Source of the DNA: a virus
Lineage: Duplodnaviria; Caudoviricetes
Virus record (IMG/VR): IMGVR_UViG_3300045912_000939
Span: 1-61,369 of that record
DNA: 61,369 nt
Strand: one strand, 5' to 3'
Numbering within the stretch: position 1 is the first letter of the stretch; every line of letters begins with the position of its first letter. Below the pieces are notes generated by a model. That model was not told the origin of the DNA. It worked only from the letters and a program-made list of their open reading frames with translations, and made no database searches. Of the stretch, positions 12,148-44,044 are shown piece by piece. Made by a program: the position numbers and the translations under genes.

Positions 12148-12170
12148 TGTCCCCACCCTCGCGCCACGGT
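12148..12170 (+). promoter_or_regulatory. Late-promoter motif (TGTCCC variant), leaderless GTG 12177
   Basis: TGTCCC-N11-CACGGT-N6-GTG. Confidence 0.6.
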
Positions 12171-12176
12171 AGACCG

Positions 12177-12968
12177 GTGAGCACTGCCCAGCGACTCATG
12201 GCGGAACTTCTCGGCCTGCATGCCGCCACCCTTCGCACCGACCGCATGCTGGCCGGGGTTGCCGACAAAATTCACGATCACCACGCGAACCGCGCCGACG
12301 TCCTGGCCAAGAGGATCGGCGCGCCAGGCGCACGCGGCGACGACCTCGAAGAGGATTACCTCGAGTCGCTCTTCGAGCGCGATATCGCCGCCCGCTATGT
12401 GACGCCGAGCGAAGGCGCTGAGCTTGTCAGCAAGGCCCACTACGAACGCGTTTGGAAGCGGCGCCGCGATGGTGTGGAACAACGCTATCGAGTTAAGATG
12501 CTCGACGTGGAGGAGATAAATGACCGCATCTCCATAGGCACGCAAGTGCGGGTACGTACAAGGGACGGACGACCGCGGTTGCTTACCAAGGTGGCCGATT
12601 TGCATCCCACTATCGTCGAACTCGCCGGCGCCAGGACTCGTGGCGTTTGGTACGACCAAGAAGCCTTGGATATCGACCGCGACAAGCACGGGGCCATCCT
12701 CAAAAATCCCCTACTCATCGTGCGCCGTATGCTCGAGGAGTTGTCGCCCGAGACCTCGATTATTCAAACGAACGACGTTCCCGAGGTGCTGCGATTCTAC
12801 CGTACGCTAAATAGCCTTGGCGATCTGGTAGCGCAGCATCGTCGGCTCAACTACGTCTATCTTGTCGTGGCCTTTAACCTACCTGGTGGACGACACGCAT
12901 ACAATTTCGTGAAGAGCCTGTACTACAAGCGTGCTATAATGCAAGACAGGAGGAGGTTATGGCCCTAA
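12177..12968 (+). CDS. Putative head-packaged protein with C-terminal BECR/RelE-like nuclease domain
   Basis: Late motif upstream; VSKA motif; C-terminal RFYRTL...YVYLVVAF...FVKSLY beta pattern. Confidence 0.5.
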   Translation: MSTAQRLMAELLGLHAATLRTDRMLAGVADKIHDHHANRADVLAKRIGAPGARGDDLEEDYLESLFERDIAARYVTPSEGAELVSKAHYERVWKRRRDGVEQRYRVKMLDVEEINDRISIGTQVRVRTRDGRPRLLTKVADLHPTIVELAGARTRGVWYDQEALDIDRDKHGAILKNPLLIVRRMLEELSPETSIIQTNDVPEVLRFYRTLNSLGDLVAQHRRLNYVYLVVAFNLPGGRHAYNFVKSLYYKRAIMQDRRRLWP

Positions 12969-13288
12969 CTGGCACCATCAGACGCTCGGACGGCATCGAT
13001 GGCGGGCGGATCGTCGTCGTCACCCGGCGTCTTGAAAACACGTATGCCGCCGACGATACCGACTACATCTCGGGCCTTGTGCAAGTGTTGCGCGACCTCG
13101 ACTCCGACGAATTCGTAGCGATCGCGCACGATGCGCCTCATCTCATCCCCAAGCATTATGGGGCGCTGCGGGCACTGGACTTGCCGCATCTGGACGTGGC
13201 GGAAGCAGAATTGCGCGACGCCCACCCCGCCGACGTGCTCAAGTGGGCGTACGAGCGCTACCTCGCTGCCGAAACCGTCGAGGCCTAA
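12959..13288 (+). CDS. Small acidic protein, putative immunity/antitoxin
   Basis: AGGAGG RBS within upstream gene, overlapping, acidic. Confidence 0.55.
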   Translation: MALTGTIRRSDGIDGGRIVVVTRRLENTYAADDTDYISGLVQVLRDLDSDEFVAIAHDAPHLIPKHYGALRALDLPHLDVAEAELRDAHPADVLKWAYERYLAAETVEA

Positions 13289-13450
13289 CACTTCCTTTCA
13301 TAGGCGCTTACCCATGAATGAATGACTGAGGCGCAGGTAGCCAAGAAGCTACGCGACCACAAAAGATAGCCGCCGTTCGGGGCGGATCTCCCGAATCCCT
13401 AGCGCGCAGAAGGGCTCAGCCTTCAGATCCTCTAGGAGTCCTATTCCACC

Positions 13451-13787
13451 TTACGGTGGAAGTCCGGCGACCGCTCTTAGTCTAGCAAAAACCCGGCCAC
13501 GATTGGATGCCCAGTACGCCACCGCACCCCACGGGCCCTGGTAGCCGTCGCCCCCTGGCAGCGCGTCCTCCCAGGCCTCCTCAGCCGCGACTTGCGCTTC
13601 GCCTTCGGCGTCGTTGCGCAACACGAGCAAAGGATCGTCCTTGCCGCGGCTCATGGTCTCGAGGCGGATGAGGGCCTTGGCCAGCGGGTTGGAGATCGCT
13701 TCAGCCTTCAGGCTCCCCGTCAGCTTGACCGCTTGGTACCACAGCTTCAGCTTCGCCAGACTCTCGCTCTCGAACAGGCTCTCGAAA
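13451..13787 (-). CDS. Tail assembly chaperone extension (probable frameshift product)
   Basis: Open frame overlapping chaperone 3' end without good start; TTT CGA at 13782-13787. Confidence 0.5.
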
Positions 13788-14183
13788 CGTTTTCTTCCAC
13801 TGGACGAAGGCTTGATGCACGTCCAGGACCAACTCCTCATCGCCTTCCCCGAGAGCGCCGGGAGCCAGAATCGGCCTGCCGGATTCCGAGGTGATGTACC
13901 AGCCTTTGGGCGCCGTTTTGATCACGTGCTCGAGCGTCGCAATGGCCGCCACAAAAAGCCTCGCGCGCAGCGGCAGGTCGTCGACGTGCAGGTTGCTGAT
14001 GCGCCCTTGGCGCACCAGCTCGGTCATGCGCGCGCCGATGGCGACCTCGTCGAACGAGGTGGGGTACTTGAAGGTGACTTCGCCATTCAGCGCGGGGTTG
14101 CGGGCGGCCGTGACGGTGTAGCGGCCGACGCTCGGCGTCGCCGTCGGCGGCTGGTAGTCGCCGGGCTCTGCGGGTTCGTACAT
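13701..14183 (-). CDS. Tail assembly chaperone
   Basis: After tube, TAATG coupling; GEVTFKYPT, IATLEHVIKTAPKGW. Confidence 0.75.
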   Translation of the reverse strand: MYEPAEPGDYQPPTATPSVGRYTVTAARNPALNGEVTFKYPTSFDEVAIGARMTELVRQGRISNLHVDDLPLRARLFVAAIATLEHVIKTAPKGWYITSESGRPILAPGALGEGDEELVLDVHQAFVQWKKTFREPVRERESGEAEAVVPSGQADGEPEG

Positions 14184-16369: not shown

Positions 16370-16588
16370 CTACACCTTCACTTTCTTCAGGCCGTCGAGC
16401 TTAGTCTGCCACTCCTTCGCCGTGAACCGCGCGGCGGCGCCATGCCGCACCTGCAAAGCGCGCACCAGCGTAGCCGACACGCCCTCGCGCGCGGCCCACT
16501 CCGCCAGCGGCAAGCGACGCTCGGCCTTCGCCTTGGCCACACTCTCGCCTTCGGGATCGGGCGATGCCGGGGACTTGTTCTTGGCCAT
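16370..16588 (-). CDS. Small pre-sheath protein
   Basis: AGGAGG RBS, late motif upstream. Confidence 0.7.
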   Translation of the reverse strand: MAKNKSPASPDPEGESVAKAKAERRLPLAEWAAREGVSATLVRALQVRHGAAARFTAKEWQTKLDGLKKVKV

Positions 16589-16604
16589 CGTGCCTCCTGC
16601 CCCA

Positions 16605-16627
16605 AGCCTGCTGGCGGCGTGGGGTCA
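16605..16627 (-). promoter_or_regulatory. Late-promoter motif
   Basis: TGACCC-N11-CAGGCT; TGA is also the upstream stop. Confidence 0.75.
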
Positions 16628-17494
16628 GAGGGTGACGCGCCAGGCGAAGGTCACGTTACCCAAGTCGAACGGGTGCGTGCGCTCGATATACGCGTCCACG
16701 ATGCCGTCCAGCGTGATCTCGCGCGTGTAGTAAAGCGCGTCGCCCAGGTCGGCCATGTTATCGCGTGCGCTCATGCCGAGCTCGTCCCAGCCCAACTCGC
16801 CGAACAGCTCGAGGTCGCCTAAGAAGCGCATCATGAAGTAGTCGCCAAGCTCGTCGCGCTGCGCGGGCGTCCGTGCGAGGAGGCGCGCCTCGGCGATGCC
16901 GCGGAAGGTCGCGGTGCGCGCGCTGCCGTCGCCGTCGTCCTCGCTGCCGAGGTGGATGTCGGCGAGCACGTAGCGCTCGGCGATCTGCAACAGCGGCGGC
17001 CCCTGACGGTGAAGCGCTTCGTCCTTGAGAACGAACACCCCTCTCGGGGCAGCGTGGTAGCGCGCGCGCTGATAGACGAGATCCTTGACCTGCAGCGCCA
17101 TGTAGGCATGGAGCGACCGCTGCGGGGTGACCTTGACCATCACACTCTCGCCATAGCTCGAGCCGTGCTTCGGCCACAGGTAGTAGTCCCAAGCGTGCCC
17201 GTCGATCAGGTTGGCCGCGTCGTCGAAGCGATCCCCGAACGCCTGAAGATCCCAGATCTCGCCGCGCTCGAGCGTGCCTTCCAGGTTACGCGCGAAACGG
17301 TACGACGGCTCGCCAGCACGCGGTGGGCCATCCCAGACCAGATGCGCGCTCTCGTCCTCCGGCCCACCGACCGGCGTGCCCTCCGGCACCCTGAGCACCC
17401 GGACGTGCGGGTAGCCCTTCGGCATCCCGAACGAGATGCGAACGGCCCCGCCCTCGGCTCGAGCGGTGGTGGTGATGTGGGAGAGCGTGGGCAT
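16625..17494 (-). CDS. Probable neck/tail-terminator protein
   Basis: Position upstream of sheath; phage-like codon usage. Confidence 0.6.
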   Translation of the reverse strand: MPTLSHITTTARAEGGAVRISFGMPKGYPHVRVLRVPEGTPVGGPEDESAHLVWDGPPRAGEPSYRFARNLEGTLERGEIWDLQAFGDRFDDAANLIDGHAWDYYLWPKHGSSYGESVMVKVTPQRSLHAYMALQVKDLVYQRARYHAAPRGVFVLKDEALHRQGPPLLQIAERYVLADIHLGSEDDGDGSARTATFRGIAEARLLARTPAQRDELGDYFMMRFLGDLELFGELGWDELGMSARDNMADLGDALYYTREITLDGIVDAYIERTHPFDLGNVTFAWRVTL

Positions 17495-20707: not shown

Positions 20708-21055
20708 CTAGAAGTAGCTGATCTGCAGCTGGCCGTCGGCGTCGTCGGCGCGGACGTAGCGGAAGCCGGTCAGTTGCAGCTCCGCTGTCAGGATGATTGC
20801 CGCGTCGTCGGGGCGACGGTGCCCCTCGCTGGCGCTGGGTGTACTGCCATCGAGCCAGAAACGCATGTGTTTCCCTTCGGGCAGTTCCACAGTGATGACC
20901 GCGTACTTCGCCCCGTTCGGGATGCCGACCAGCTGCCTTACCGTGTCGTCGATGGGTTGCGTCCCATGCCCGATTGCGGCCTTGTGAAGGGGATGCTCGA
21001 GGTTCAGCGGTTCGCCGTCTTGATCGCGCAGGTTGACGTTGACCTCGAATGCCAT
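20708..21055 (-). CDS. Small structural protein
   Basis: RFWLDGSTPSASEGH; leaderless late motif. Confidence 0.7.
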   Translation of the reverse strand: MAFEVNVNLRDQDGEPLNLEHPLHKAAIGHGTQPIDDTVRQLVGIPNGAKYAVITVELPEGKHMRFWLDGSTPSASEGHRRPDDAAIILTAELQLTGFRYVRADDADGQLQISYF

Positions 21056-21061
21056 GCGCCA

Positions 21062-21084
21062 ACGCTAGATGCGCGCTGGGGTCA
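21062..21084 (-). promoter_or_regulatory. Late-promoter motif
   Basis: TGACCC-N11-TAGCGT-N6-ATG. Confidence 0.8.
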
Positions 21085-21948
21085 GACGGACGCCAAGCGC
21101 GTGATGTGTTCGGCGTCGAGCTCGAGCGCCAACGCCATAATGCGCGGCGTCTCGCGCTGCAACCACTCGGCCACCGCTTTAGCCGGGTAGCGGCCGGGGC
21201 GTTCGGGAATCAGCCAGGTACCCGCGGGATTGTTCTCGCTCAGGGTGCGGAAGGTCAGGTAGAGGCTGCTGCCGCGGCGTTCGGTCGACGTGTCCATGCG
21301 GACCATGCCGGCCATGCGCTGCGTCTTGCGGTCCTGCGGGTCGTAGCCGAGCTCCTTGAGTTCCGCCAGGGTCAACCTACCGCCCCAGTCGTACACGTTG
21401 CGCGTGACGCTCGTCTCGGGATCGTGGACGGACGGCTCGCTAAACTGGCCCGTGATGAAGCTCTTGGCCTTCTCGCGCATGCGCTCGTAGACGTTTTCCG
21501 GCATCTCGTTGCCGCTGTACTCGCCTACGACCACGGTGTCGGGCGTGCCGTGGCGGAATGGGATGATCAAGTACAGGCTGCCCTTCTTGCTGCGCCGCAC
21601 CTTATGACTGGTGTAGAGGATGTCGTGCAGATCCCAGGCCGAGGCGCCCTCTTCGATGACGCGCGCCTTGGGATCGTTCGAGTAGATGCTGTAGTCGTGC
21701 TCGCCCGTTTGCTCGAGCTGAATCGAACGCAGGTAGCGGCCGCTCCAACTGCGGATGCGCGAGCCGTCGGGCAGCGCCTCCTTGCCCGAGGCGTAGTTCA
21801 GCCAGCGCCGATGCCCGGCTTCGGCGATCTCCTGGATCGCCCGCACCTGGTTGGGGAAGATGACGGCAGCGTCCTCGGCGGCCATTGCCACCGCCCGCTC
21901 GACGCCGGCGGGGAAGCCGATGGTTAAGCGAACCCTGTATCTGGCCAT
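21082..21948 (-). CDS. Neck/tail completion protein
   Basis: SGRYLRSI, YLIIPFRHGTP, YLTFRTLS motifs. Confidence 0.7.
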   Translation of the reverse strand: MARYRVRLTIGFPAGVERAVAMAAEDAAVIFPNQVRAIQEIAEAGHRRWLNYASGKEALPDGSRIRSWSGRYLRSIQLEQTGEHDYSIYSNDPKARVIEEGASAWDLHDILYTSHKVRRSKKGSLYLIIPFRHGTPDTVVVGEYSGNEMPENVYERMREKAKSFITGQFSEPSVHDPETSVTRNVYDWGGRLTLAELKELGYDPQDRKTQRMAGMVRMDTSTERRGSSLYLTFRTLSENNPAGTWLIPERPGRYPAKAVAEWLQRETPRIMALALELDAEHITRLASV

Positions 21949-21954
21949 GCAGTA

Positions 21955-21977
21955 AGCATGCGACCGGTCGAGGGTCA
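21955..21977 (-). promoter_or_regulatory. Late-promoter motif
   Basis: TGACCC-N11-CATGCT-N6-ATG. Confidence 0.75.
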
Positions 21978-22003
21978 CGACGGTAGAATGACGATAGTAG
22001 TCT

Positions 22004-24585: not shown

Positions 24586-24850
24586 ACCTGTAACGCCTCG
24601 TCAGTCCCAGCAAGACGGTCCCGTCCGACAGCGCCGCCACTTCCTGCTCGCGCACCGGCAGGCGGGCGCCATTCACATAGAGGATCGACCGGTACATGGT
24701 CAGCTTATCTCCCGTGGTGGCCTCGAACAAGCCGTCGTCGTCCAAGATCACGAAGGCGCGCTTGCCGCGGCGCTCGAGCCTGAGCACGTAGCCGTAGCGG
24801 CCTCGCAAGCGCGCCAGCAGTGCCGCGTCGTTACTGGCCGTCGCTCCCAC
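24560..24850 (-). CDS. Hypothetical protein
   Basis: Overlapping ORF in operon. Confidence 0.5.
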   Translation of the reverse strand: MGATASNDAALLARLRGRYGYVLRLERRGKRAFVILDDDGLFEATTGDKLTMYRSILYVNGARLPVREQEVAALSDGTVLLGLTRRYRYGARRCLP

Positions 24851-25304
24851 CCTCGTCGCTCGAGCCTGCGAGGGCTTCAGCTACCAGGGCGATGAGGTCG
24901 GCCTTCTTCGCCTCGGGGTCGAAGGCGACCTTGAGCTGCCGCAGCGCGCGTTTGTATTCGTCGTTGCCGATGCGCTCGCGCTGCGCCTCCGACGCTTCGG
25001 CGAAGCGCGTGGCGAAGCTCTCGAGCCACGCCGCGTCGGGGTCGGTCGGGCGCGACTCGGTCTTCTCGGTGGTGACCTTGACCGGCTCGGGCTCGGACAC
25101 GAGATCCCCGCTTACTGCATCGACGATGACGTAGCCGGGCACGCGCCTGAAGGGCTCGACGTGCGCGGCGTTGGCCGGTTCGGACACCACAGCGCCGAGC
25201 TTGTCGCTGAAGCCGAACAGTAGGCCGTTCACGACGCACTTGCCGCGCCGGCGCACGGCGTCGGCGACGCTCGGCGCGTTCACTACCTTCACGCGAAAAT
25301 CCAT
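24831..25304 (-). CDS. Hypothetical virion-associated protein
   Basis: GGAGG RBS, late motif; C-terminal AKKADLIALV resembles Rho-N/HeH. Confidence 0.65.
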   Translation of the reverse strand: MDFRVKVVNAPSVADAVRRRGKCVVNGLLFGFSDKLGAVVSEPANAAHVEPFRRVPGYVIVDAVSGDLVSEPEPVKVTTEKTESRPTDPDAAWLESFATRFAEASEAQRERIGNDEYKRALRQLKVAFDPEAKKADLIALVAEALAGSSDEGGSDGQ

Positions 25305-25320
25305 ATCGACCTCCGCGCTC

Positions 25321-25343
25321 AGCGTCGAGCGCTCGAGGGGTCA
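25321..25343 (-). promoter_or_regulatory. Late-promoter motif
   Basis: TGACCC-N11-GACGCT. Confidence 0.75.
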
Positions 25344-25353
25344 GACGCCAGCG

Positions 25354-27658: not shown

Positions 27659-27678
27659 GGTGCCTCCTTCATGCTGCC

Positions 27679-27701
27679 AGCGTGCAAACGGCAAGGGGTC
27701 A
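27679..27701 (-). promoter_or_regulatory. Late-promoter motif
   Basis: TGACCC-N11-CACGCT. Confidence 0.75.
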
Positions 27702-27708
27702 GGCTGCT

Positions 27709-28716: not shown

Positions 28717-28722
28717 GCTCGA

Positions 28723-28745
28723 AGCATGAGCCTATGTTGGGGTCA
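28723..28745 (-). promoter_or_regulatory. Late-promoter motif
   Basis: TGACCC-N11-CATGCT-N6-ATG. Confidence 0.8.
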
Positions 28746-28753
28746 GTTTTTAT

Positions 28754-29363: not shown

Positions 29364-29395
29364 CTCCGCCACGAGGCCGGAGCGATGAGGCAGCC

Positions 29396-29418
29396 TGACC
29401 CCCGCTAGGCTCGAGCCT
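29396..29418 (+). promoter_or_regulatory. Late-promoter motif
   Basis: TGACCC-N11-GAGCCT-N5-ATG. Confidence 0.8.
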
Positions 29419-29423
29419 GGGGC

Positions 29424-32400
29424 ATGCCCGACAATGATGTGCGCATCAATATCCGAAGCAGCTTTTCCAGCGAGGGTGCCGACGACGTCAAATCCGACGC
29501 GCGCGAGCTACGTGAAGAGTTCGAGCATCTGGCCGATTCCATCGGAGACGCGGACGCCATGTTGCGCGAGCGCTACGCCAGTGCCGTCGAAGACGCCGCG
29601 CGGCAAACGAGTCGTGCGGCCGAGGTCATGGCGCAAGTCGGTCCCTTTAGCGGCATACTCTTTGCGGATGTCGCACGGCAGGCCATACAGGCGGGCGACC
29701 TCGACGCCGCCATCTCGGCGATCATGCAGGGGTACAAGACCGACGAGCCGCGAGCCATCCTGCAGCGCCTACAACAAGAAGTGTTGGAGGCGCGTCGCGC
29801 TACGGCAGACGTCGACCCTAAGGCGCCGGAGCCCGAGCTTGGCGATCCTCGTTCGCCCCGCATCGCCGAGCAGCTGCGCCGCCGCGTCGAAGACGCCATT
29901 CCGACGGTCGAGGCCAATCTCGTGCTCGGCCGAGCAGGAGGGGCCGAACGCAGTCTCGGGCTGGCCGAGCAGTATCTCGAGCAGCTCAGGCAGCTCGAGG
30001 GCAACACCGCCGAGCTAAAAGCACTGGGTGGCATCCTCGGTAAGCATCGCGAGAGCTTGGAGGACCTGAAGACCAAGCAGCCTCTCCCGCTGCCCGATCC
30101 CGCACAACCGCCGAGCCCGGTGGACATGGAAGGCTTTGCCGACACGCTGGTCAAGATGATGCGAGACCGGGGTTTGGGTGGAGCGGGCTCGATAGGGGGG
30201 ATGGTCGGGCGGCTTGGGCGTTTCCTTGGCCCATGGGGGATGGCGCTGACCGGCGTGACGGTAGCTGCGGGAGCGGCACATTCACTACTCGGTCGCATAG
30301 CGAGCGGCGCGCGCGAGGCACGCGAAGAAGCGCTGGCATTCCACGAGCTTGCACGTGAGTTCGGTGCCGACGAGAGCATCTTGCAACACTTCCTCAATAT
30401 CGAAAACGCCACCGGCTTCAACGTCTTCCGTACCAGTCCCGAGCTGCAGGCGCTGCGTTACACGACGACGGAAGCGGGACGCTTCGCTGCGCAGTACGGC
30501 GTCATGGCGCCCAACGTCGGAGCGGCCTTCTACCGCCCCACCCGACGAGAGGTCGATGCGTTGGCCCAAACGCTGCTCGAGCCGGGTGGAGATATCGAGG
30601 AGGCACGGCGCCTTGCCGAAGCGCAGTTGCGCAACAATCCGCCCGAAAGCGGCTCTGGCCGCTACGCCAGTCCTTACGCCCGCGAGTACGGGCTGTACCT
30701 CGATACCGTTGCCGGTTTGGGCCTCGCTCGAGCCACCGGCATCGACGAGTCGCAGATTGCCGCGCTCATGCGCAACGCGGCTCTAGTCGGCACGTTCGAG
30801 CCCGGCTTTGCCGAGCAGTTGGCCAGGGTGCTCTTTCAGGCCGTCCGGGACGGGACGGCCGAAGGCGTCAGCGCAAGCGAAACGCTCGTTTCCATGAAGT
30901 CGTACTTCGAGCGGCTGGCAGCAAGCGGCATCCGCGGTGATATCGAGGGCAGCGCGACCATTGCAATGTTGCAGCAAGTGCTGAACGAGTCGGCCAACCG
31001 AACCCTGCGGGGCGAAAGCGGGGCCCGGGCCCTCACAGGCATGATCACCGGCATGACGGAACTGGGCGACCCAGGGCTCGAGCTCTTCATGCAACGCGCG
31101 TTTGCCGGCCTCACTGCGGAAGACGTGGGCCTGAGCGGCGAAGAGGCGGTATGGTTCGAGCAACTTAGCCCGGTCGTGCGCGGCCGCATTATCGCCGAGC
31201 GTGCCCAGGCGGGCAACTATCGAGCGCTGGAGGCGCTGGGCGCGCAGTACAGCGGCGCGTTTGGGGAAAACCAGAATCTACAGGTCGAGTTCGCCCAGCA
31301 GTATCTTGGCCTGTCTCGCACACAAGCGTTGAGCCTTCTAGCGGAGCACGGCGGCGACCTCTTTCGCGTCTTCACCTCGGGCGAGGATGTCTACCGGCAA
31401 TCGTTGCAGCGCTACGAGGCGGCGCAGATTAGCGATGAGGGGATCGGGGGCGAGGGGGCGCTCAGGCGCATGGCTATCGACGCGGAGCAGCGAGCGTTTA
31501 TCGATGCCGAACGGGAGCGCGTTGGGTCGTATGTCTTCGCGCTACAAAACTTCGATGTCGCGATTACCGAAACCACGCTAAGACTCAACGAGTTTTGGAG
31601 GAACCTCGCGGGAATTGTTGCCGGGTTGCGCCAAGATCCACTGTTGGGTCGTTACATCGGACTGGGGCTCGAGCAGCTTCACCAAGACGAGCTTCAGCGG
31701 GGTGTGTCGAGCGGCCTAATCGATCAGGGCGCGTACGACAACGCCTATCAGGCCTATCGCGATCTCGGCATGAGCCACGAAGAAGCTCGCTCCGTGGCGC
31801 TGCGGACCGTCAGGCAGTCGTCTCCTCGGGGTGGGCAGGAGCCTGAACAGGAAAGGCCGGAGCTTCAGCTTGAGCTCGGCCGACTCAACAGAAGAGAGCC
31901 CCTGACGCGAGAAGAGCTTGTATTAGAGATGTACGAGGCGGCCGTGCGGTTGCGCGAGGCGGGTTACCCGATCAACCCCGCGGTTTTGACGGCACAGGTC
32001 GTTTTAGAAAGTGGCTATTTAGACTCGGAGCTGGCATGGCGCTACAACAACCCGGCTGGCGCCAAAGCTGGACGCGGCTGGACGGGTGAGACGGTCAACC
32101 TTGAGACTACCGAAAACACACCGACTGGCGAGGAGTACCGCGTGCGCGCGGACTTTCGGGTTTATGGCAGTTTCGAGGAAGCGCTGCTTGATTATGAGCG
32201 AGTCATGCAACTGCCGTGGTATGCGGAATCGGTAGCCAATCCCGATGATATCGAGCGCTACATCCAGGGACTCATGCCCATTTACGACGCTGCGGGGCGC
32301 CAAATTAAGCCTGGTTACGCAACCGACGTCAATTACGATAGAAAACTCGACAACATCATCCGCCGGCATGGACTCGACGAGCGGGAGCTCGAGCGTCTTC

Positions 32401-33484: not shown

Positions 33485-33514
33485 GGCTTCTCCTGCGCTC
33501 AGCATACCAAGAAC

Positions 33515-33537
33515 TGACCCCCGATGGGATGGAAGGT
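33515..33537 (+). promoter_or_regulatory. Late-promoter motif
   Basis: TGACCC-N11-GAAGGT-N6-ATG. Confidence 0.75.
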
Positions 33538-33543
33538 TCAAGC

Positions 33544-35013
33544 ATGCGCGCCACCGAAAGCGATATCGCGGTCAAGCTGCATCTGCAGTCGGGACAGGTA
33601 CTCGACCTGAGCCACCTGGTGGTCGAGTACGCGGACCGCTCGAGCTTAAATGCCTTCCCCTCCTTTGGGCTGACCGTGCCAGCCGTTTACCCCGAGCCCG
33701 GCCCGTTTGAGGGGAAGCCCTTTGCTGAATTCGTGCGGCTCGGCGATATTCTCGAAGTCGGGCTGATCTCCACGGATGGTAGTCACGGCCCTTATGGGCT
33801 TGGCGGGTATCGGACCGCCATGGTCGGCATGGTGCAGCAGCTGAGCCTGAGACAGGCGCTGTCCGGCGACGATCTCATCAACGTCTGCGTCATCGGCGGC
33901 TCGAGCCTCTCCGGCGTGATGCTCAACGAGTCCGTAAGCTACTTTTTGGCGTACGGCGCGGCGCACGGCGTCTTCCGGGCGCGAGGATTGGTGCCGCTTG
34001 AAGACCTCAACAACGTGCGTCTGGACGCGGCGCTCTTGGCCTTTACCCGTGGTGTGGCCTACAGCATGCTGCGCATCGAACGCCCTCAAGGGAAGCTCGA
34101 GGATCTTCTGGGTGCAGCGTTCAAAACGCTTGACGGCGAAGGCGTCTTCGATACCGCCTGGGGACGGTACGAAGGCTCGTTCTGGGGGTTTTTGCAGAGC
34201 TACGCCGACCAACCACTGCACGAGGTGTATGCCACGCATTGGCCTCTGGCGCGAGTTCGCGAGTTTGCTGGGTTCACCCACCTGCCAAGAGTCTCCTGGG
34301 GGGAAGACCGCGTGGTGCCGGTGCTCGTCATTCGCCCTGCCCCATTCCCGTACTCCGAGGATGGCGGCCCCGCGAGGCTCGACGACTGGCGGGCGTTGCC
34401 CGTGCACGACCTTACAGCCGCGGACTGGGAGGGCTCGGAAGAGCGCTCCACGGAGCTGAGCGCGAGCGAGGTCGCCAATTTCTTCTATGTCTACCCCCGC
34501 ACGTTTAACTTCGACGAGGTGTTTAATCTCACGTACGCGCCGGTAATCATTAATGACGACTCGTGGAAGCGGCACGGCTATCGGCCGCTCAGCTTCGCCT
34601 CGTGGCTGTGGGGAAGAGGCGCCGCCAAGGAGGGCGCCGAGAACTATTTCCAGCGCCTTAACTGGCGCCTGGCCTCGCAGCACAATCGAAGAGACGAGTT
34701 TTTCGGCGGTCAACTAACCATGCGGCTGGCCCCCCATATTCGCGTAGGCGAGCGGATCAAGCTGCGGCACCGTGTCGGCGACGACACCACGGTCGCCTTG
34801 GCGTACGTTTCAGGCGTCTCCCACCGCTTTTCCGTCCGCGGCCCGAGATTGACCACGCTGAGCATCGAGCGCGGGCTTGCCGAGCGCTTTTACGAGGATG
34901 GCGCGTGGTTCGTGAAAGGGCTTATCCAGCACAACCCCATTCGAGACGAGGCGTTGCCGGTAGCCGTTGTGCGGCGCAACGACATACCGGGCGCACATCG
35001 CCTGGAGGAGTAA
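33544..35013 (+). CDS. Baseplate hub protein
   Basis: After TMP; GQLTMRLAPHIRVGERI, YVSGVSHRF..TTLSIERG. Confidence 0.75.
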   Translation: MRATESDIAVKLHLQSGQVLDLSHLVVEYADRSSLNAFPSFGLTVPAVYPEPGPFEGKPFAEFVRLGDILEVGLISTDGSHGPYGLGGYRTAMVGMVQQLSLRQALSGDDLINVCVIGGSSLSGVMLNESVSYFLAYGAAHGVFRARGLVPLEDLNNVRLDAALLAFTRGVAYSMLRIERPQGKLEDLLGAAFKTLDGEGVFDTAWGRYEGSFWGFLQSYADQPLHEVYATHWPLARVREFAGFTHLPRVSWGEDRVVPVLVIRPAPFPYSEDGGPARLDDWRALPVHDLTAADWEGSEERSTELSASEVANFFYVYPRTFNFDEVFNLTYAPVIINDDSWKRHGYRPLSFASWLWGRGAAKEGAENYFQRLNWRLASQHNRRDEFFGGQLTMRLAPHIRVGERIKLRHRVGDDTTVALAYVSGVSHRFSVRGPRLTTLSIERGLAERFYEDGAWFVKGLIQHNPIRDEALPVAVVRRNDIPGAHRLEE

Positions 35014-37170: not shown

Positions 37171-37232
37171 GGCCTTAGAATACCTAAAATAATAAGGCTT
37201 AGGAAGGGGCCTTGAGCGACAGTCGCGTTGCC

Positions 37233-37255
37233 TGACCCCAATCGTGCGTCACCTT
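37233..37255 (+). promoter_or_regulatory. Late-promoter motif
   Basis: TGACCC-N11-CACCTT-N6-ATG. Confidence 0.75.
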
Positions 37256-37261
37256 ACCCGC

Positions 37262-37855
37262 ATGGCCAAGGTGTATCTGCGCTTGCTCGAGCCCACCGGT
37301 GCGCTCGTCCCCTGTCCGGTGTCGTTCATCGGCTCGAGCGGCGTCTGGGCGTTCCCCCTCGGCCTGCAGTCTTATGGCGAGGAGCGGCTCGCGCGCGTGC
37401 AGGTGCTGCATATCCCCGACGGTGTGGCGGCCGACAGCCTGGGCATCTCGCCGCCGGTGTTTCAGCTCGAGGCGACCTTCGGCAGTAAGCCGAAAATGGT
37501 CCGCGGCCGCACCATGAGCGCGCAGGAGGTCACCAACGACCTGATCGCGTTCGTGCAGTTCTACTTCAGCGAGCGCCGCCAGCGCGTGCGCGAGCGTAAC
37601 GATCTGATCGAGATGGCGCTCGATGACTTCGTGCACGCCCGCCACTGGATCGTACAGCCCGATGGGGCGCCGAAGGTGCGGCACGCTGCGCGCGAGCCCG
37701 TGCGCACGTATTGGTCGATGACGCTGCAAGGTTTGCGGCGCTGGCAGTCGACCACCACCCCGCTCGATGCGCTGGCCAGCGCGCTCGTCCCCGGCACCAG
37801 CGCGCAGATCGGCAGAGAGTGGGACCGCTTCGACGCCTTCGCGGGTGAAACATGA
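37262..37855 (+). CDS. Probable tube-initiator/baseplate protein
   Basis: Leaderless late start; position in baseplate cluster. Confidence 0.55.
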   Translation: MAKVYLRLLEPTGALVPCPVSFIGSSGVWAFPLGLQSYGEERLARVQVLHIPDGVAADSLGISPPVFQLEATFGSKPKMVRGRTMSAQEVTNDLIAFVQFYFSERRQRVRERNDLIEMALDDFVHARHWIVQPDGAPKVRHAAREPVRTYWSMTLQGLRRWQSTTTPLDALASALVPGTSAQIGREWDRFDAFAGET

Positions 37856-38712: not shown

Positions 38713-39339
38713 ATGCCGCGCTACGCCGTCTATGAAGTCAAGCAGTTCGACGACATCCGCCGCCTGGCTCAGCACCTACTCGGTGACTTGCATCGCTGGC
38801 GCGAGCTTGTCACTCTGAACCGGCTCGAGTATCCGTACATCGTCAGCGACCCGGCGCAGCACCTCGGCAAGCGGGTGCTGCGCCCTGGCGACCGCATGCT
38901 CTACCCGGGCCGGCCGGTTCGGCAGCTCACGCCCGCTTCGGCGCAGAACGCCGAGGCCGATGCGTACGGGCGCGACTTGCGCTTGACTCGCGACGGCCAC
39001 CTGGTGCCCATCGGCGGCAGCCTAGCGCTCGTCACCGGCCTCGAGAACCTCGAGCATGCCCTCCATCGCCGCATCAACACGCACCTGGGCGGCTTGCCGG
39101 CGCACCCGCGCACCTACGGGCACCTCGCCAAACAGTACGTGGGCAGCGTCGGCGAGCCCGAGTCGCTCGCGCTGATCGCGCTCGAGTTCGAGCGTTGCCT
39201 CCGCCGCGACTCGCGCGTGGCCAGCGTCGAAGTGTCAGGCGAACACGACGGCGCCAAGATCGCCACCACCCGCAGCCGCGTGACGCCGCACCCGCCGGGT
39301 CAAGAGCTCGTGCTTGAGGAGAGCCTGGTCGTTAACTGA
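38713..39339 (+). CDS. LysM-like + gp25/gpW baseplate wedge protein
   Basis: DDIRRLAQHLLGD..WRELVTLNRL; GLENLEHAL..HPRTYG..DSRVASV. Confidence 0.8.
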   Translation: MPRYAVYEVKQFDDIRRLAQHLLGDLHRWRELVTLNRLEYPYIVSDPAQHLGKRVLRPGDRMLYPGRPVRQLTPASAQNAEADAYGRDLRLTRDGHLVPIGGSLALVTGLENLEHALHRRINTHLGGLPAHPRTYGHLAKQYVGSVGEPESLALIALEFERCLRRDSRVASVEVSGEHDGAKIATTRSRVTPHPPGQELVLEESLVVN

Positions 39340-39359
39340 CCCTGCCGGCGCGTCACGCT
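39337..39359 (+). promoter_or_regulatory. Late-promoter motif
   Basis: TGACCC-N11-CACGCT-N6-ATG. Confidence 0.8.
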
Positions 39360-39365
39360 CCAACT

Positions 39366-40439
39366 ATGATCCAGCGCCCCTACACCTACAAACCGCTCGA
39401 GGAGACCGTCTGGGAGATGCTGGCTTTGTGGTGGTCGCGGACGGGCATCAAGCCCGACGCCGAGCCCGGCAGCGTGCTGCGGACGCTCTGCGAGGCGGTC
39501 GGCTTCGAGGTCGAGGATCTGACCTTCCGTTTCGACAGTGGCCTGGAGACCGCCATCCCACTCGCGATCTTCGAGGCGTTCGGCTTCGAGCCGCTCGAAG
39601 CCACCAAAGCGACCGTCCCCGTGACCTTTACCCGTTCGGCAGCCTTTTCGAGCCCGCTCGAGATTCCTGCCGGCTTCAAGGTAGGGCGGGCCGACGGGGT
39701 GGATTACGAGGTGGTGCTCGGGGGCGAGATCCCCGCCGGCGAGAGCAGCGTGACCCTCGCGGCCTTGTGCACGGTGCCGGGCGCGATAGGCAACGCGCCG
39801 GCCAACACCGTGATCTTCCCTCGCGCGTCGCTACCGACGCTGGTCAGCGTCGCCAATCCGCAGCCTGCCGAGGGCGGCCAGGACGAAGAACCGCTGGACG
39901 ATCAGAAGGCCCGCTTCGCACGTTACATCGCCAGCGTGCACCGGGCGACCCGCGCGGCGCTCGAGGCAGCCGCGCTGGCAGTAACGACCGACGCCGGCGA
40001 GCGCGCGACCGAGGTGCTGGTCTTGGACGCGGTCTATAAGACGGGCCTTTCGCCGGGCTACGTCGAAGTGTGGGTGGACGACGGCTTCGCCACCGCCTCG
40101 CTGGCGCTGGTAGACGCCATCCAACAGGAGCTCGAGCGCTACCGGGCGGCAGGCGCGGTGCATGCCACCTACCCCGTCGAGCCCGTGCCGGTGGATGTCA
40201 GCTACCAGCTCGACGGCGACCCCGACGACCTCGACGCCTGCGACCAGGCGGCCAGGGATTACGTGCGCTCGCTGAGGATCGGACAGAAGGTCTCGCGCGA
40301 GAGCCTGATCACGGCGCTGACGAACGCCGCCGTCAACAGCTTTGAAGTGACGCTGCTCGAGCCCGCCGCCGACGTGATGGTCGGCCAGACGGAGCGCGCG
40401 GTGCTCGGAGCGCTCGGCGGGAGCATGATCGATGAGTGA
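39366..40439 (+). CDS. Baseplate J-like protein
   Basis: GSVLRTLCEA, PGAIGNAPAN, GGQDEE, YRAAG. Confidence 0.9.
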   Translation: MIQRPYTYKPLEETVWEMLALWWSRTGIKPDAEPGSVLRTLCEAVGFEVEDLTFRFDSGLETAIPLAIFEAFGFEPLEATKATVPVTFTRSAAFSSPLEIPAGFKVGRADGVDYEVVLGGEIPAGESSVTLAALCTVPGAIGNAPANTVIFPRASLPTLVSVANPQPAEGGQDEEPLDDQKARFARYIASVHRATRAALEAAALAVTTDAGERATEVLVLDAVYKTGLSPGYVEVWVDDGFATASLALVDAIQQELERYRAAGAVHATYPVEPVPVDVSYQLDGDPDDLDACDQAARDYVRSLRIGQKVSRESLITALTNAAVNSFEVTLLEPAADVMVGQTERAVLGALGGSMIDE

Positions 40440-41109
40440 GGAGCGCTTCCGGCTTCCCAAGTGGCTGAGGCGCGACGGCGTCAACGCGCCGTTTCTGGAG
40501 ATGCTTTGGCGCGCGCTCGCCTCGAGCGATCCCGACCTGGCGCTCGCCATGCTCTACCTCGCGAAAGCCGCCGGCAAGCACCTCGACGCGCACGGGCGAC
40601 TCTACGGGCTGCCGCGCCTGCTGGGGGAGAGCGACGACCTGTACCGGCAGCGGATCGTCGCGGAGCTGCTCAACCCCCGCTCGAAGGCCGAGGCTATCGT
40701 CGGCGCCATCGAAACCGCGCTGCCGGGCGTCACTGCCAGTGTCACCACGCCCTACGAGGAAGCGCTGGCCGAGGGCGCGCACTTCTTCGACGGCACCTGG
40801 CGCTTCGACGGCGGCGTCTTCTTCAAGGAGCCCTCGAACCCGGATGCGACGGCTCGAGCCGTCTTTTACGTGGACGTCTTCGGCCCGGACCCCGATCTCA
40901 CGCGAGCCAGGGCCGTCATCGAGCGGCTGCGCGCCGCCGGCTACATCCCGACCATCCGCTTCTCGTTCCAGTTCGACACGCTGCTCGAGCTTCCCCTCGA
41001 GGCGAGCGTGCAGCGGCGCGAGGTGTTCTATTTCGATGGGACGCGCACCTTCGACGGCAGCTGGTTCTTCGGGTTGAACGACGTCGGCCCGGAGGAAGCG
41101 CTCGACTGA
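40432..41109 (+). CDS. Baseplate I-like tail protein
   Basis: AAGKHLDAHGRLYGLPRLLGESDDLYRQRI; FDGTW repeats. Confidence 0.75.
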   Translation: MSEERFRLPKWLRRDGVNAPFLEMLWRALASSDPDLALAMLYLAKAAGKHLDAHGRLYGLPRLLGESDDLYRQRIVAELLNPRSKAEAIVGAIETALPGVTASVTTPYEEALAEGAHFFDGTWRFDGGVFFKEPSNPDATARAVFYVDVFGPDPDLTRARAVIERLRAAGYIPTIRFSFQFDTLLELPLEASVQRREVFYFDGTRTFDGSWFFGLNDVGPEEALD

Positions 41110-41129
41110 CCCCAGGCCGGGGGCAGCGT
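41107..41129 (+). promoter_or_regulatory. Late-promoter motif
   Basis: TGACCC-N11-CAGCGT-N5-ATG. Confidence 0.75.
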
Positions 41130-41134
41130 GAGGC

Positions 41135-41506
41135 ATGCCGCGCACCACCACCGACACCTTGAAGGCAGCGCTCGCGCAGCACCTGGCGGGGGAGAGCACC
41201 CCGGCGCTGGAAGTGGTCGAGGCGGCGTTCGGGACGGGCGGCGTGGACGCCTTCGGTAACTTGCGCAGTGCCGAGCCCACCCGCACCGCCCTGCGGAGCG
41301 AGGTGCACCGCAACGACAACGTGACCGTCACGCGCGACGGCACCATCGCGACGGCGCTGGTACGGATTAATGGCGACGAGGCTGGAACGGTGACAATCTC
41401 CGAGGCGGGAATCTTCGCGGCCGGAAACAAGCTGCTGGCGTATGCCACCTTCCCGCCGCGCGAGATCGGGCCGGGCACCCAGCTCGACTTCCGCTTCAGG
41501 ATATAG
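41135..41506 (+). CDS. Tail-collar/fibre attachment protein (DUF3751-like)
   Basis: AFGTGG, TALRSEV, ISEAGIF..LLAYATFP. Confidence 0.75.
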   Translation: MPRTTTDTLKAALAQHLAGESTPALEVVEAAFGTGGVDAFGNLRSAEPTRTALRSEVHRNDNVTVTRDGTIATALVRINGDEAGTVTISEAGIFAAGNKLLAYATFPPREIGPGTQLDFRFRI

Positions 41507-42088: not shown

Positions 42089-42100
42089 CGGGATAGCCCC

Positions 42101-42526
42101 ATGATTGCGGCTACCTTAATCCTGTTCGGGCTGGCGGCCTTGCTCGAGCGCCTCACGGGATCGCCGTTCGTCGCTAGCTTCGTCGGGCGCCTTCTCGCGC
42201 GCGCTTATCAAGGCAGGCTTGTGCCGTCGCTGATCGGCGGCCACTACGCGGTCTACGAAGTGCGCGCCGTGCCGAGCCTCGTTCCCGGCATGGCCGCGCA
42301 GACCTGGGGTGAGGTCGTCCTGGTCAGGCGGGGCGAGCACACCCTCCGCCTCGAAGCGCACGAGCGCGAGCACGTGCTGCAGTACCGGCGGTGGACAAGC
42401 TTGCTGTTTTGGTTGGCATACGTCGCGTGCTGGCTCTGGGGTCTCGTTCGCTACCGCGACGCGACGCGGGCGTACTGGCAGATCCCGTTCGAGGTGGCCG
42501 CGCGCCGCGCCGAAAAGCTCGCCTGA
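42101..42526 (+). CDS. Membrane HExxH protein, DUF4157-like metallopeptidase
   Basis: AQTWGEVVL..AHEREHVLQY..PFEVAAR. Confidence 0.7.
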   Translation: MIAATLILFGLAALLERLTGSPFVASFVGRLLARAYQGRLVPSLIGGHYAVYEVRAVPSLVPGMAAQTWGEVVLVRRGEHTLRLEAHEREHVLQYRRWTSLLFWLAYVACWLWGLVRYRDATRAYWQIPFEVAARRAEKLA

Positions 42527-42546
42527 CCCCCGCCAGGCTCGAGCGT
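42524..42546 (+). promoter_or_regulatory. Late-promoter motif (near copy of TMP promoter)
   Basis: TGACCCCCGCCAGGCTCGAGCGT-N5-ATG. Confidence 0.8.
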
Positions 42547-42551
42547 AGGGC

Positions 42552-43994
42552 ATGCCCGATAACGACGTCCGCATCAACGTCACGAGCACCTTCTCGAGCG
42601 AAGGCTCGGACAAGGTTCAGTCGGACGCGCTCGAGCTGCGCGCCAGCTACGGTTCCATCTGGGAGTTCTTTCAGCGCGCTACGCCCGAAGAGATACAGCG
42701 CATGTCGCATACGGCGCTGCGCGATGTCACGCCGGCGGGCGTGACGGGCGACCTCGCCACGGCGGGCTACCGGCAACAGTTGGAAGCGGAAGAGCTCGAG
42801 CGCATCAGGAGCCTCAACGCATCTTTCCAGGAACTCGATGTATCGGCGCAACAGTTCCGAAAGACGCTTCACAGCTTCGTCACCGATTGGCTATGGGAGC
42901 GCCGTTTCCGGGACGATCCTTATTGGGGGCCACGATTTCGGGAATGGCAAGAGGAGCAAGAACGGCAGGAGCAAGAGACGCTGCGAGATCGCCACTCGCA
43001 ACGGGAGCTTACGGCATCTGCAGCCGAGCTTGCGCGTTCCCCCGACGATGACGTTGCTCTCGTCCTACATGCAGCCAATGTCTTGAAGGCAAGGGAGTCG
43101 CGCGGGAACTACGCTGCCATCAACGAAGATGCTTATGGCCCAGACAATCCGGCGCTGGGCGCCTATCAGATTCTGGCATCGAATCTAGGAGGGCCTAGAG
43201 GTTGGGATACGAAGCATCTCGGGCATGAAATTACCCGAGAAGAGTTCTTGGCGAATCCGATGTTGCAGGATCAGATCGCTCGTGGCCAGCTCATGGAGTA
43301 CCTCGGAAGGATGCCGGAAGGGTTGAGCCTCGAAGAACGCGCACGTCGTCTCGCCGTGGCCTGGTATGCAGGACCGGGCAGGGGAGACGCAAACCTGTTG
43401 CGCGACACCAGTCAACTTAGCGATCGACCAGTCGTCTACACGTACGAAGATGGGACGTGGCACATCGAGGCTCAGGGGAGGCGCTACGATCCCAGCGAGC
43501 GGGAAATCGAACGCCTAGCGCGATACTTTGCCGCACTTGGAGTGGACGAGTCTCTTGCCTATGGTATGGCCCAAAATCGCCTCATCGACGGTGGCCCAGC
43601 GGTGTTGGACGAGTTGCCGACGGGCTACCGAAGCGGCGGCTTCACCGGCGACGGTGCGGAGGACGACGTCGCCGGCATCGTGCACCGCGGCGAGTTCGTG
43701 GTGCGCGCCGACGAGACCCGGCGGCACCGGGAGCTGCTCGAGCGCCTCAACGCCGGCGCGGATGAAGCAGCGCTATTGGCGGCGCTGGCCGCGTCTTCGC
43801 CAGCGCCAGCCGACAGCCCGCAGGCATCCGGCGCCACGAGCGTCGTGCGCTTCGAGGGCGAAGGCCTGCTGCGCATCGAGGTCGACGAGCGCGTGCCGGA
43901 AGGCGCGCGGCTCGAGCGCTACCTCGCCGAGGGCCTGCAGCGCTGGCAGGGTGAAGTCCGCTCGCGCTTCAACCAGGGCGCGCGCCGCGGCTGA
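42552..43994 (+). CDS. Short tape-measure paralogue with lysozyme/transglycosylase-like domain
   Basis: N- and C-termini align with 29424..33017; ARESRGNY, ALGAYQIL, FLANPMLQD, AWYAGPG. Confidence 0.8.
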   Translation: MPDNDVRINVTSTFSSEGSDKVQSDALELRASYGSIWEFFQRATPEEIQRMSHTALRDVTPAGVTGDLATAGYRQQLEAEELERIRSLNASFQELDVSAQQFRKTLHSFVTDWLWERRFRDDPYWGPRFREWQEEQERQEQETLRDRHSQRELTASAAELARSPDDDVALVLHAANVLKARESRGNYAAINEDAYGPDNPALGAYQILASNLGGPRGWDTKHLGHEITREEFLANPMLQDQIARGQLMEYLGRMPEGLSLEERARRLAVAWYAGPGRGDANLLRDTSQLSDRPVVYTYEDGTWHIEAQGRRYDPSEREIERLARYFAALGVDESLAYGMAQNRLIDGGPAVLDELPTGYRSGGFTGDGAEDDVAGIVHRGEFVVRADETRRHRELLERLNAGADEAALLAALAASSPAPADSPQASGATSVVRFEGEGLLRIEVDERVPEGARLERYLAEGLQRWQGEVRSRFNQGARRG

Positions 43995-44021
43995 CTGAAG
44001 ATGGGCCCGCCCTCGAGGGTC

Positions 44022-44044
44022 TGACCCTATCGGGTGGCCAGGAT
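44022..44044 (+). promoter_or_regulatory. Late-promoter motif
   Basis: TGACCC-N11-CAGGAT-N6-ATG. Confidence 0.75.

Follow-up and report, generated by a model that had tools for sequence, protein, structure and literature searches.

A TGACCC box and a weak -10 element very probably mark a phage-specific class of leaderless late promoters in temperate phages of the Deinococcus-Thermus group

How does a temperate phage of the Deinococcus-Thermus group switch on virion and lysis genes that lie scattered over both of its strands? The question is raised by the provirus sequence IMGVR_UViG_3300045912_000939, here called the window, a stretch of 61,369 nucleotides (nt) with a G+C content of 64% that is the entire virus record, is classed as a provirus and has an estimated completeness of 76%. 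An initial annotation of this DNA had described 14 copies of a non-canonical late promoter motif, CTGACCC-N11-NANNNT, ahead of mostly leaderless genes, and had proposed that they depend on a phage activator or an altered sigma factor. The analysis reported here points to late promoters devoid of a -35 element, which are probably used by the sigma-A RNA polymerase together with a phage box-binding factor, the likeliest being the product of the gene 50069-50974.

In the numbering used below, the T of TGACCC is position 1 of the motif and the preceding C is position 0. The TGACCC hexamer by itself is not enriched (34 copies versus 26.7 expected; 7 of the 100 shuffles reach 34). The composite pattern CTGACCC-N12-A-N3-T was found 13 times versus 0.26 expected, with a shuffle maximum of 2 and none of the 100 shuffles reaching 13. 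Twelve of these copies are sites of the initial annotation, whose 14 sites were all recovered at their positions; the two off-pattern sites are 12148, the TGTCCC variant already recognized as such, and 21977, in which a G replaces the C ahead of TGACCC. T1, G2, C4 to C6, A19 and T23 are invariant in the 14 sites, the last two as had been claimed, and A3 and C0 are each conserved in 13 of them. With a weight matrix derived from the 14 sites, a scan of the whole window gave 15 sites with scores of 17.9 to 24.5 and none between 17.9 and 12.4; no site was found in 1-12000 or 45000-61369, nor in the early, replication and lysogeny part, and the junction of the record's two ends did not contain the motif either. 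All 14 sites are oriented like the gene behind them and all precede virion or lysis genes, in agreement with the initial annotation. The thirteenth copy of the strict pattern, 19834(+) (19833-19856), is also the fifteenth site of the weight-matrix scan; it is a full motif lying antisense within the gene 18965-20698 with no start codon behind it, and is either a chance match (about 0.66 expected among the 20 other TGACCC copies) or an antisense promoter. The 14 sites are as follows, SD standing for Shine-Dalgarno.

12147..12179 (+), TGTCCC variant, GTG 12177 at position 30, gene 12177-12968, score 21.1
16586..16628 (-), 10-nt SD leader, ATG 16588, small gene and then the tail sheath, score 22.8
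21053..21085 (-), ATG 21055, TGA is the stop codon of the upstream gene, score 21.2
21946..21978 (-), G for C before TGACCC, ATG 21948, gene 21082-21948, score 17.9
25302..25344 (-), 10-nt SD leader, ATG 25304, gene 24831-25304, score 22.1
27656..27702 (-), mini open reading frame with ATG at position 30, real start 27658 behind AAGGAGG, gene 26981-27658, score 22.8
28714..28746 (-), ATG 28716, gene 27709-28716, score 20.3
29395..29426 (+), ATG 29424 at position 29, tape-measure-like protein of 1197 amino acids (aa) with a glucosaminidase domain, score 24.0
33514..33546 (+), ATG 33544, gene 33544-35013, score 21.1
37232..37264 (+), ATG 37262, gene ending at 37855, score 20.1
39336..39368 (+), ATG 39366, baseplate J, TGA is the upstream stop codon, score 20.0
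41106..41137 (+), ATG 41135, tail-collar-fibre-like protein, TGA is the upstream stop codon, score 24.4
42523..42554 (+), ATG 42552, TGA is the upstream stop codon, score 24.5
44021..44053 (+), ATG 44051, amidase, first gene of the lysis cluster, score 20.6

The start codon is an ATG at position 29 in three sites, an ATG at position 30 in seven and a GTG at position 30 in site 12148, i.e. 11 of the 14 sites, and the remaining three have a short SD leader, as first reported: sites 16627 and 25343 carry GGAGG and an ATG at position 40, and at site 27701 position 30 opens a mini-ORF (open reading frame) of five codons, while the gene itself starts in the same frame at position 44, behind AAGGAGG. 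The ends of the ORFs also confirmed that the TGA terminates the preceding ORF at five sites (39337, 41107, 42524, 16627 and 21084). If the A of the start codon is taken as +1, T23 falls at -7, A19 at -11 and the TGACCC box at about -29 to -24. A-11 and T-7 are the two -10 bases for which primary sigma factors are most stringent, and both are present in 14 of 14 sites; the -10 element of the window is weak, with T at -12 in one site of 14. The spacing between TGACCC and the -10 hexamer is 11 bp. The motif positions -5 to -1, where a -35 element would lie at the canonical 16-18 bp, are unconserved, and no excess of sigma-70-type -35/-10 pairs was detected in the late regions (2 versus 2.6 and 3 versus 2.9 expected). 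A -10 element next to the ORF is described as the common promoter mode in Deinococcus-Thermus in the available text of two reports (PMC4007540, PMC12340547), and 11 of the 14 sites have this leaderless layout, with 5-8 nt between the end of the -10 and the start codon and without an SD sequence, the three others having SD leaders. In these three sites the spacing from the box to the -10 is kept and the start codon moves, which fits a fixed transcription start better than a translation signal. The cro-like gene 58846-59073 (-) is preceded by a canonical leaderless early promoter, TTGACA-N17-TACACT-N5-ATG, at 59073-59110 (-), so the canonical leaderless class and the box class coexist in one genome. 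This early promoter faces the LexA-like repressor gene at 59178 and looks like an immunity switch. Taken as a whole, the feature is real and very probably represents a phage-specific class of leaderless late promoters.

The motif was then searched in relatives of the window with the pattern TGACCC-N12-A-N3-T. The nearest named phages are the Thermus myoviruses Cumys and phiMa (large terminase, TerL, and baseplate J about 55% identical), and the Lalka phages are more distant (about 40-43% identity; TerL 43% versus Lalka8). A megablast of the window against phages gave no match, and single-protein scans with baseplate J yielded one unrelated low-GC contig in IMG/VR and none among the genome contigs. 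Cumys contains 11 matches in 50,000 of its 50,223 nt, 10 of them before annotated genes and one inside the giant helicase gene. Eight of the 10 gene-leading sites have an ATG at position 30-31 and two an SD leader; in seven of the 10 the TGA is the upstream stop codon, which produces a fixed intergenic spacer of 26 nt. Ten matches were found in 50,000 of the 51,843 nt of phiMa. When TGTCCC was allowed, the 83-kb prophage contig G173:C9 showed 20 matches, 15 of them with a start codon at positions 28-31, and the G170 prophage 11 matches in the 100 kb examined, five with an ATG at position 30. No exact window-type motif is present in the whole 72-kb genome of Lalka8, and none was found in the first 60 kb of the distant prophage contig G120:C23.

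Comparison of the genes behind the 14 sites with their orthologues in Cumys, G170, G173 and Lalka8 revealed motif-led orthologues in 5 of 11, 3 of 10, 5 of 7 and 1 of 9 cases, respectively, the Lalka8 case being a TGACGC variant. The motif and the leader of gene 24831-25304 are found again at its orthologues in Cumys, G170 and G173, and SD leaders are kept at the orthologous sites of both this gene and 26981-27658. The gene 27709-28716 is the orthologue of the Cumys head maturation protease and the motif stands before the Cumys and G170 orthologues; it also precedes the orthologues of 33544-35013 in Cumys and G173, of 37262-37855 in Cumys, G173 and Lalka8 (the TGACGC variant), of the gene at 41135 in Cumys and of 21082-21948 in G173. 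The baseplate J orthologues of G170 and G173 are motif-led, and that of Cumys lacks the motif. Inspection by eye added two positional counterparts in Cumys: 35222, before a scaffold-like gene, which repeats the layout of site 27701, and 26595, whose small gene is followed by the sheath and which corresponds to site 16627. The first 72 aa of the product of 12177-12968 resemble Cumys_42. The same predicted promoter architecture is thus present in Cumys, phiMa and three Deinococcota prophages, often before orthologous genes. A further element of the window, CTGACCCC at 2818-2842, follows the minor head gene; its TGA is a stop codon, A19 is missing and the next ATG is at position 22. It is the positional counterpart of the full Cumys site 2923 and so probably a decayed site or one of a different kind. 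For several genes the ATG 29 nt past the box makes a better start, among them those starting at 33544, 37262, 21948 and 27658 in the window and Cumys_3 and Cumys_8.

The initial annotation had proposed that the motif be compared with host genomes, and there it is nearly confined to the prophage in two lysogens. With the pattern TGACCC-N12-A-N3-T-N6-ATG, 11 of 11 matches in the 4.7-Mb genome G173 lie on the prophage contig (reversed-pattern control, 0) and 5 of 7 in the 3.5-Mb genome G170 lie within the prophage (control, 2), the chance probability of this confinement being about 5e-20 and 1e-8, respectively. A shorter pattern occurs at 212 per Mb in the window versus 9.1, 11.5, 22.0 and 3.6 per Mb in four genomes, each with a related prophage; in a 2.2-Mb metagenome-assembled genome (MAG) of Thermus it gave 25 matches versus 12 for the control.

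A sister class has been published for phage Lalka27a. In the available text of the preprint (bioRxiv 10.64898/2026.04.20.719267), the late promoters of this phage are leaderless with a TAGGGT -10 and a conserved C at -25, and the 5' ends determined by small-RNA sequencing (sRNA-seq) lie 6 bp past the -10 for half of 16 late promoters. Its authors found no sigma factor and postulated a phage factor of unknown identity; the same text reports only the C at -25, makes no mention of phiMa and proposes no protein as the factor. In Lalka8 we found 24 TAGGGT copies, 15 of which are followed by a start codon 11-13 nt past the T. These 15 sites show T (7) or G (6) at -28, G (10) at -27, A (9) at -26, C (14) at -25 and C (10) at -24, that is a loose (T/G)GACC at -28 to -24, one base nearer to the -10 than the box of the window. 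For a start at position 30, C5 of the window is the same -25 cytosine and is a C in 14 of 14 sites, again with no -35 element; a TAGGGT -10 was found in none of the 14. The two classes share many late promoters without terminators between them, leaderless starts, the lack of a -35 element, C-25 and the lack of a recognisable sigma factor, and they differ in that the Lalka sites combine a near-invariant, strong TAGGGT -10 with a loose box whereas those of the window combine a weak NANNNT -10 with a strict TGACCC. They look like two settings of one design, and by descent the promoters of the window belong with the late promoters of Lalka27a. The system had been called undescribed, which is only partly right in view of this sister class; the TGACCC box itself, its spread to Deinococcus-type proviruses, the lineage variants and the candidate factor were not found in print in our literature searches. 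Among the matches listed for TGACCC promoters of phages, none dealt by title or abstract with Thermus or Deinococcus phages, and promoters are not discussed in the available text of the Cumys and phiMa paper (PMC11437467).

Other lineages carry other boxes. In G120:C23 (56% G+C; loci L021-L023 and L037), TTACGGC-N10-A-N3-T, its box at the same place as in the window, precedes leaderless late genes; 8 of the 30 genome-wide matches fall on the 91-kb contig (P about 1e-8), the genome-wide count being equal to that of the control. The contig G002:C21 (loci L033-L035) has no match at the spacing of the window and has five sites of the form T(G/A)AC(C/A)CCCCGC, with the A, the T and the ATG 3 bp further. 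The variant late box of G002 is TGACCCCCCGCG, whose spacing to the -10 is longer by 3 bp.

Comparison with known systems places the class, by analogy, closest to T4 middle promoters in geometry and closest to P1 late promoters in biology. As described in the available text of a paper on T4 (PMC2988021), a MotA box replaces the -35 element of middle promoters at 12 +/- 1 bp from a host-type -10. The window likewise has a box in place of the -35, a spacing of 11 bp that falls in this range and many scattered copies (dozens in T4), and MotA-type activators have separate polymerase- and DNA-binding halves, as proposed below for the candidate. The sequence of the T4 box is different, the -10 of T4 middle promoters must be excellent whereas that of the window is weak, and the class of the window would be late and leaderless. 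No match to the MotA or AsiA families of Pfam was obtained at E up to 0.01 with the 67 window ORFs scanned. The late promoters of P1 are activated by Lpa, a small polymerase-binding phage protein, according to the available text of PMC8198154. P1, too, is a myovirus and temperate; its late promoters, about a dozen and distributed over both strands, serve morphogenesis and lysis genes and are made of a -10 and a phage element instead of a -35. The P1 element reportedly is a 9-bp inverted repeat centred near -22 (Lehnherr and Arber), in contrast to TGACCC, which is asymmetric and lies further upstream, the spacers of the window having no shared dyad; a scan of the window proteins against Pfam and PHROGs gave no match to an Lpa-like family. 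In the leaderless genes of Deinococcus-Thermus, too, 5-6 nt separate the -10 from the start codon, so that the AUG forms the 5' end of the mRNA, as far as the available text of PMC4007540 and PMC12340547 goes; these host promoters differ by the absence of TGACCC and by a TANNNT -10, T-12 being present in a single window site. A sigma-54 promoter has GG at -24 and GC at -12 and starts 12 bp after the GC. The box of the window contains no GG and is 29 nt, not 24, from the presumed start.

These observations suggest the following mechanism. Host RNA polymerase with its primary sigma factor would recognise the weak -10 remnant (A-11, T-7), and transcription would start at or beside the A of the start codon, giving a leaderless mRNA at 11 sites and a 10-14-nt SD leader at three. 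A phage protein reading TGACCC at about -29 to -24 would stand in for the -35 contact, and the genes would be late if the box were read only in the presence of this protein. Dependence on a phage factor is likely. The interpretation first put forward, a phage activator or an altered sigma, is partly supported by indirect evidence: the -11/-7 register of A19 and T23, the lack of a -35 element at 17 bp, the conservation of the motif before orthologous genes of related phages, its near absence from host genes and a search for sigma region 2 that found no match in the window or its complete relatives. The most likely reader of the box would be the product of the following gene.

50069..50974 (-), candidate box-binding late factor P0001, 301 aa, proposed from its conservation and a domain model

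This gene was one of the two activator candidates of the initial annotation and is the best one found; only one gene of the leftward early operon follows it before the terminase genes are reached. In many temperate phages the late regulator is encoded at the distal end of the early operon. The non-structural genes common to the motif-bearing genomes are the repressor, the integrase, the methyltransferase, 48960-49655 and 50069-50974, and the complete genomes of Cumys and phiMa share few further ones with the window. The family is small, a search of 1.84 billion proteins yielding 43 representatives at E up to 0.001. Homologues were detected with the family profile in G170, G173, G002 and G120 and by tblastn in Cumys, phiMa and the metagenome loci L026 and L027, and Lalka8_9 is homologous to the N-terminal half (residues 30-159; hhalign probability 99.5%, E 5e-23). 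A homologue is thus present in all six complete or better-sampled relatives examined, and the fragmentary Thermus MAG G001 alone gave none with the family profile. A search of IMG/VR with the alignment of the family found nothing, and a metagenome scan found two short contigs only. No TAGGGT occurs within 100 nt upstream of Lalka8_9, so this gene is not itself late-type. In Cumys, Cumys_45 is annotated as a protein of 180 aa; the homology with the candidate family spans a 244-aa ORF from the GTG at 42814 (Cumys 42080-42814 (-)).

The AlphaFold2 model of the candidate is confident, with a predicted local distance difference test score (pLDDT) of 90.2 and a predicted template modelling score (pTM) of 0.80. 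It comprises an N-terminal domain of seven helices (about residues 20-130) with a helix-turn-helix-like (HTH-like) stretch, a small beta-barrel (residues 134-190) and an alpha/beta, winged-helix-like third domain (residues 191-267); in the tail, C270, C272, C282 and C293 are conserved at 90% or more in 32 sequences. In the ESM Atlas the whole protein had no usable match, and the N-domain gave HTH-family leads, Sigma70_r4_2 among them, with scores of 0.80-0.84, below the 0.9 bar. Fold searches were made with the whole model: Foldseek returned 0 matches at E up to 0.001 in PDB and BFVD, and the weak, domain-sized rows of VIA-align were ParB-type HTH, Tudor/SH3-like barrels and winged helices. 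The C-terminal half with four cysteines is found in 7 of 7 genomes with a TGACCC-type box (the window, L027, Cumys, phiMa, G170, G173 and G002), and the homologues of Lalka8 and G120, which have other boxes, carry unrelated C-terminal halves. This fits a conserved polymerase-docking half joined to an exchangeable DNA-reading half. From this sequence evidence, it is plausible that 50069-50974 encodes the late factor. A wider proposal, which we put forward as doubtful, is that the family is a new modular late-transcription factor of Deinococcota myoviruses, with an N-terminal half that docks on the host polymerase or sigma where the -35 contact would be and a swappable C-terminal half, of the four-cysteine type or of HTH-like types, that reads TGACCC, (T/G)GACC or TTACGGC; it would be an independently invented form of sigma appropriation, tied to leaderless expression across the genome. 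Two other genes were rejected as general factors. The second activator candidate of the initial annotation (52912..53343; the ORF is 52912-53562) has no homologue in Cumys, phiMa, G170, G173 or Lalka8 and no family match, and the ParB-like gene 50980-51861 is not conserved in Cumys, phiMa, G170 and G173.

Several results weigh against this picture. The candidate protein resembles none of the families that bind DNA or polymerase and has no match in Pfam, PHROGs or NCBIfam, its best E against PDB sequences is 0.73, and VIA-align against 48,161 chains gave 0 matches at Z 5 or more, with best rows at Z 3.4-4.3. The link between the box and the C-terminal half would amount to about three independent lineage contrasts. 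The family is present also where the box differs, so that its presence or absence does not discriminate; a link drawn between the presence of the candidate and that of the motif, on the view that Lalka8 and G120 lack the candidate, was dropped when profile searches found homologues in both. With a provirus record of incomplete length, the gene of the factor could be missing from it. The weight-matrix scan of the window found no site at the portal and terminase genes, and the late timing is deduced from gene content and by analogy with Lalka27a. The spacing from the box to the -10 is 10, 11 or 14 bp according to the lineage, which is awkward for one rigid polymerase contact, and the boxes of Lalka and of the window share GACC, so a common host-encoded reader may be possible.

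Among the other explanations, an unlikely one keeps the need for a phage factor and assigns it to 48960-49655, to a small early protein, to a methyltransferase-dependent step or to a gene missing from the record, as its 76% completeness would permit. The 48960-49655 product has a zinc-ribbon-like N-terminus and a long helical part, and its cysteine motif of the HGGxSTG type is weak (E 0.0011, which does not reach the cut-off of the family). It is conserved throughout the relatives, Lalka8 and G120 among them, and keeps its synteny with the candidate. Its gene adjoins that of the large terminase in four of six genomes, however, and lies behind its own TAGGGT late-type promoter in Lalka8 (site 10807) and behind a TGACCC site in L027; with a terminase neighbour and late promoters of its own, it looks like a late packaging gene. 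A D12 methyltransferase is common to the window, Cumys, phiMa, G170 and Lalka8, but the box contains no GATC, and Cumys and phiMa, whose genomes are complete, have few other non-structural genes in common with the window. It is less likely still that a phage sigma-like subunit replaces the host sigma. The two-block motif with fixed spacing, the resemblance of the TGAC core to the TTGACA of a -35 and the Sigma70_r4_2 lead of the candidate's N-domain, below the bar as said, would be in line with such a subunit. Against it, a search of all six frames with PF04542 (Sigma70_r2) yielded nothing at E up to 1 for the window, Cumys, phiMa or Lalka8, the controls being positive in 11 of 14 genomes and the window being incomplete; the initial annotation had recognised no sigma gene, and no region-2 match in the window or its complete relatives contradicts it. 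The only r4_2 match (11.5 bits) lies within a ParB-HTH gene, hhalign gave the candidate family a probability of 0.3% against regions 3-4 of the host sigma-A, the -10 retains the A-11/T-7 signature of primary sigma factors, and the Lalka27a authors, in the available text, did not find a sigma either. A search for a single-subunit polymerase gave no match, but it matched no control genome either and is therefore weak.

It is equally improbable that no phage factor is needed and that the host holoenzyme, alone or with a host protein, suffices, TGACCC being modulating or incidental, for instance as stop-codon context. The frequency of -10-next-to-ORF promoters in Deinococcus-Thermus (available text of PMC4007540 and PMC12340547) and the use of TGA as the upstream stop at five of the 14 sites of the window and seven of the 10 in Cumys are compatible with this explanation. 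The box is nevertheless kept in the nine sites where the TGA is no stop codon, and the -10, devoid of T-12 in 13 of 14 sites, is weak unaided; full motifs are almost absent outside prophages, so a host reader would be left without a host regulon, and the sequence of the box differs among phage lineages. An action at the level of RNA or single strands, as a processing site, a hairpin terminator or stabiliser or an N4-type hairpin promoter, is very improbable. Several spacers can pair C-runs with G-runs (for example at 41107, 44022 and 16627) and the distance to the start codon is fixed, but the mean predicted folding energy of the 14 sites is indistinct from that of random genome 30-mers (-7.45 versus -6.49 kcal/mol, bootstrap P 0.13) and the predicted structures are heterogeneous, and the hairpin, terminator or N4-type reading was rejected on this ground. 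Moreover, the conserved A and T match the register of a -10, and the three SD-led sites keep the motif and not the distance to the start codon. A phage box-binding protein acting with the sigma-A polymerase is the explanation that we retain as probable.

The main genes of the window assigned with Pfam are given below.

1-1773, portal
14641-16368 (-), tail sheath
29424-33017 (+), tape-measure-like protein with a glucosaminidase domain, 1197 aa
39366-40439 (+), baseplate J
44051-44734 (+), N-acetylmuramoyl-L-alanine amidase
46852-49086 (-), large terminase (TerL)
53568-54905 (-), DnaB
present in the window, D12 adenine methyltransferase, LexA-like repressor and integrase

The early operon also contains a DdrB-like gene, 57241-58005 (-) (PF12747, E 3.6e-38). 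DdrB is a single-strand-binding protein known in Deinococcus DNA repair, and this gene suggests a Deinococcus-type host for the provirus. In the late region, the best terminator-like hairpin, nine pairs followed by a T-run at 25426-25447 (-), lies just 3' of the major capsid gene and upstream of the box promoter 25343. A small S24-peptidase ORF (LexA/UmuD-like) is located at 36766-37170 (-) amid plus-strand late genes. The genes at 29424 (1197 aa) and 42552 (480 aa) encode the same first residues, MPDNDVRIN, and have near-identical promoters (29396-29470 and 42524-42600), a likeness that is, from the sequences compared, apparently a partial duplication of the tape-measure-like gene. A TnpB/IS605 OrfB gene (10450-11670) stands directly ahead of a 118-aa ORF (region 10450-12044) whose only match, with 73% identity, is the C-terminus of the Cumys virion helicase, a protein of 1617 aa. 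The remainder of this giant helicase gene is missing from the window, so the provirus is rearranged or decayed around 10450-12044. No CRISPR-like array adjoins the TnpB gene, in contrast to the Lalka phages.

If the proposed mechanism is true, the virion and lysis genes of an entire group of temperate phages, whose hosts are radiation-resistant and thermophilic bacteria, would all be turned on by one small phage protein and a 6-bp box. Structural work on bacterial transcription relies mainly on the RNA polymerase of Thermus, and laboratory strains of T. thermophilus support the growth of Cumys, phiMa and Lalka. A named candidate, a defined box and natural variants of both the box and the domains make the question of the factor left open by the Lalka27a preprint directly testable. 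The box is useful for annotation, in which it corrects several start codons of the window and of Cumys, and, if the mechanism holds, geneticists working with Thermus and Deinococcus would gain from it an expression signal that is leaderless, tight and inducible by phage.

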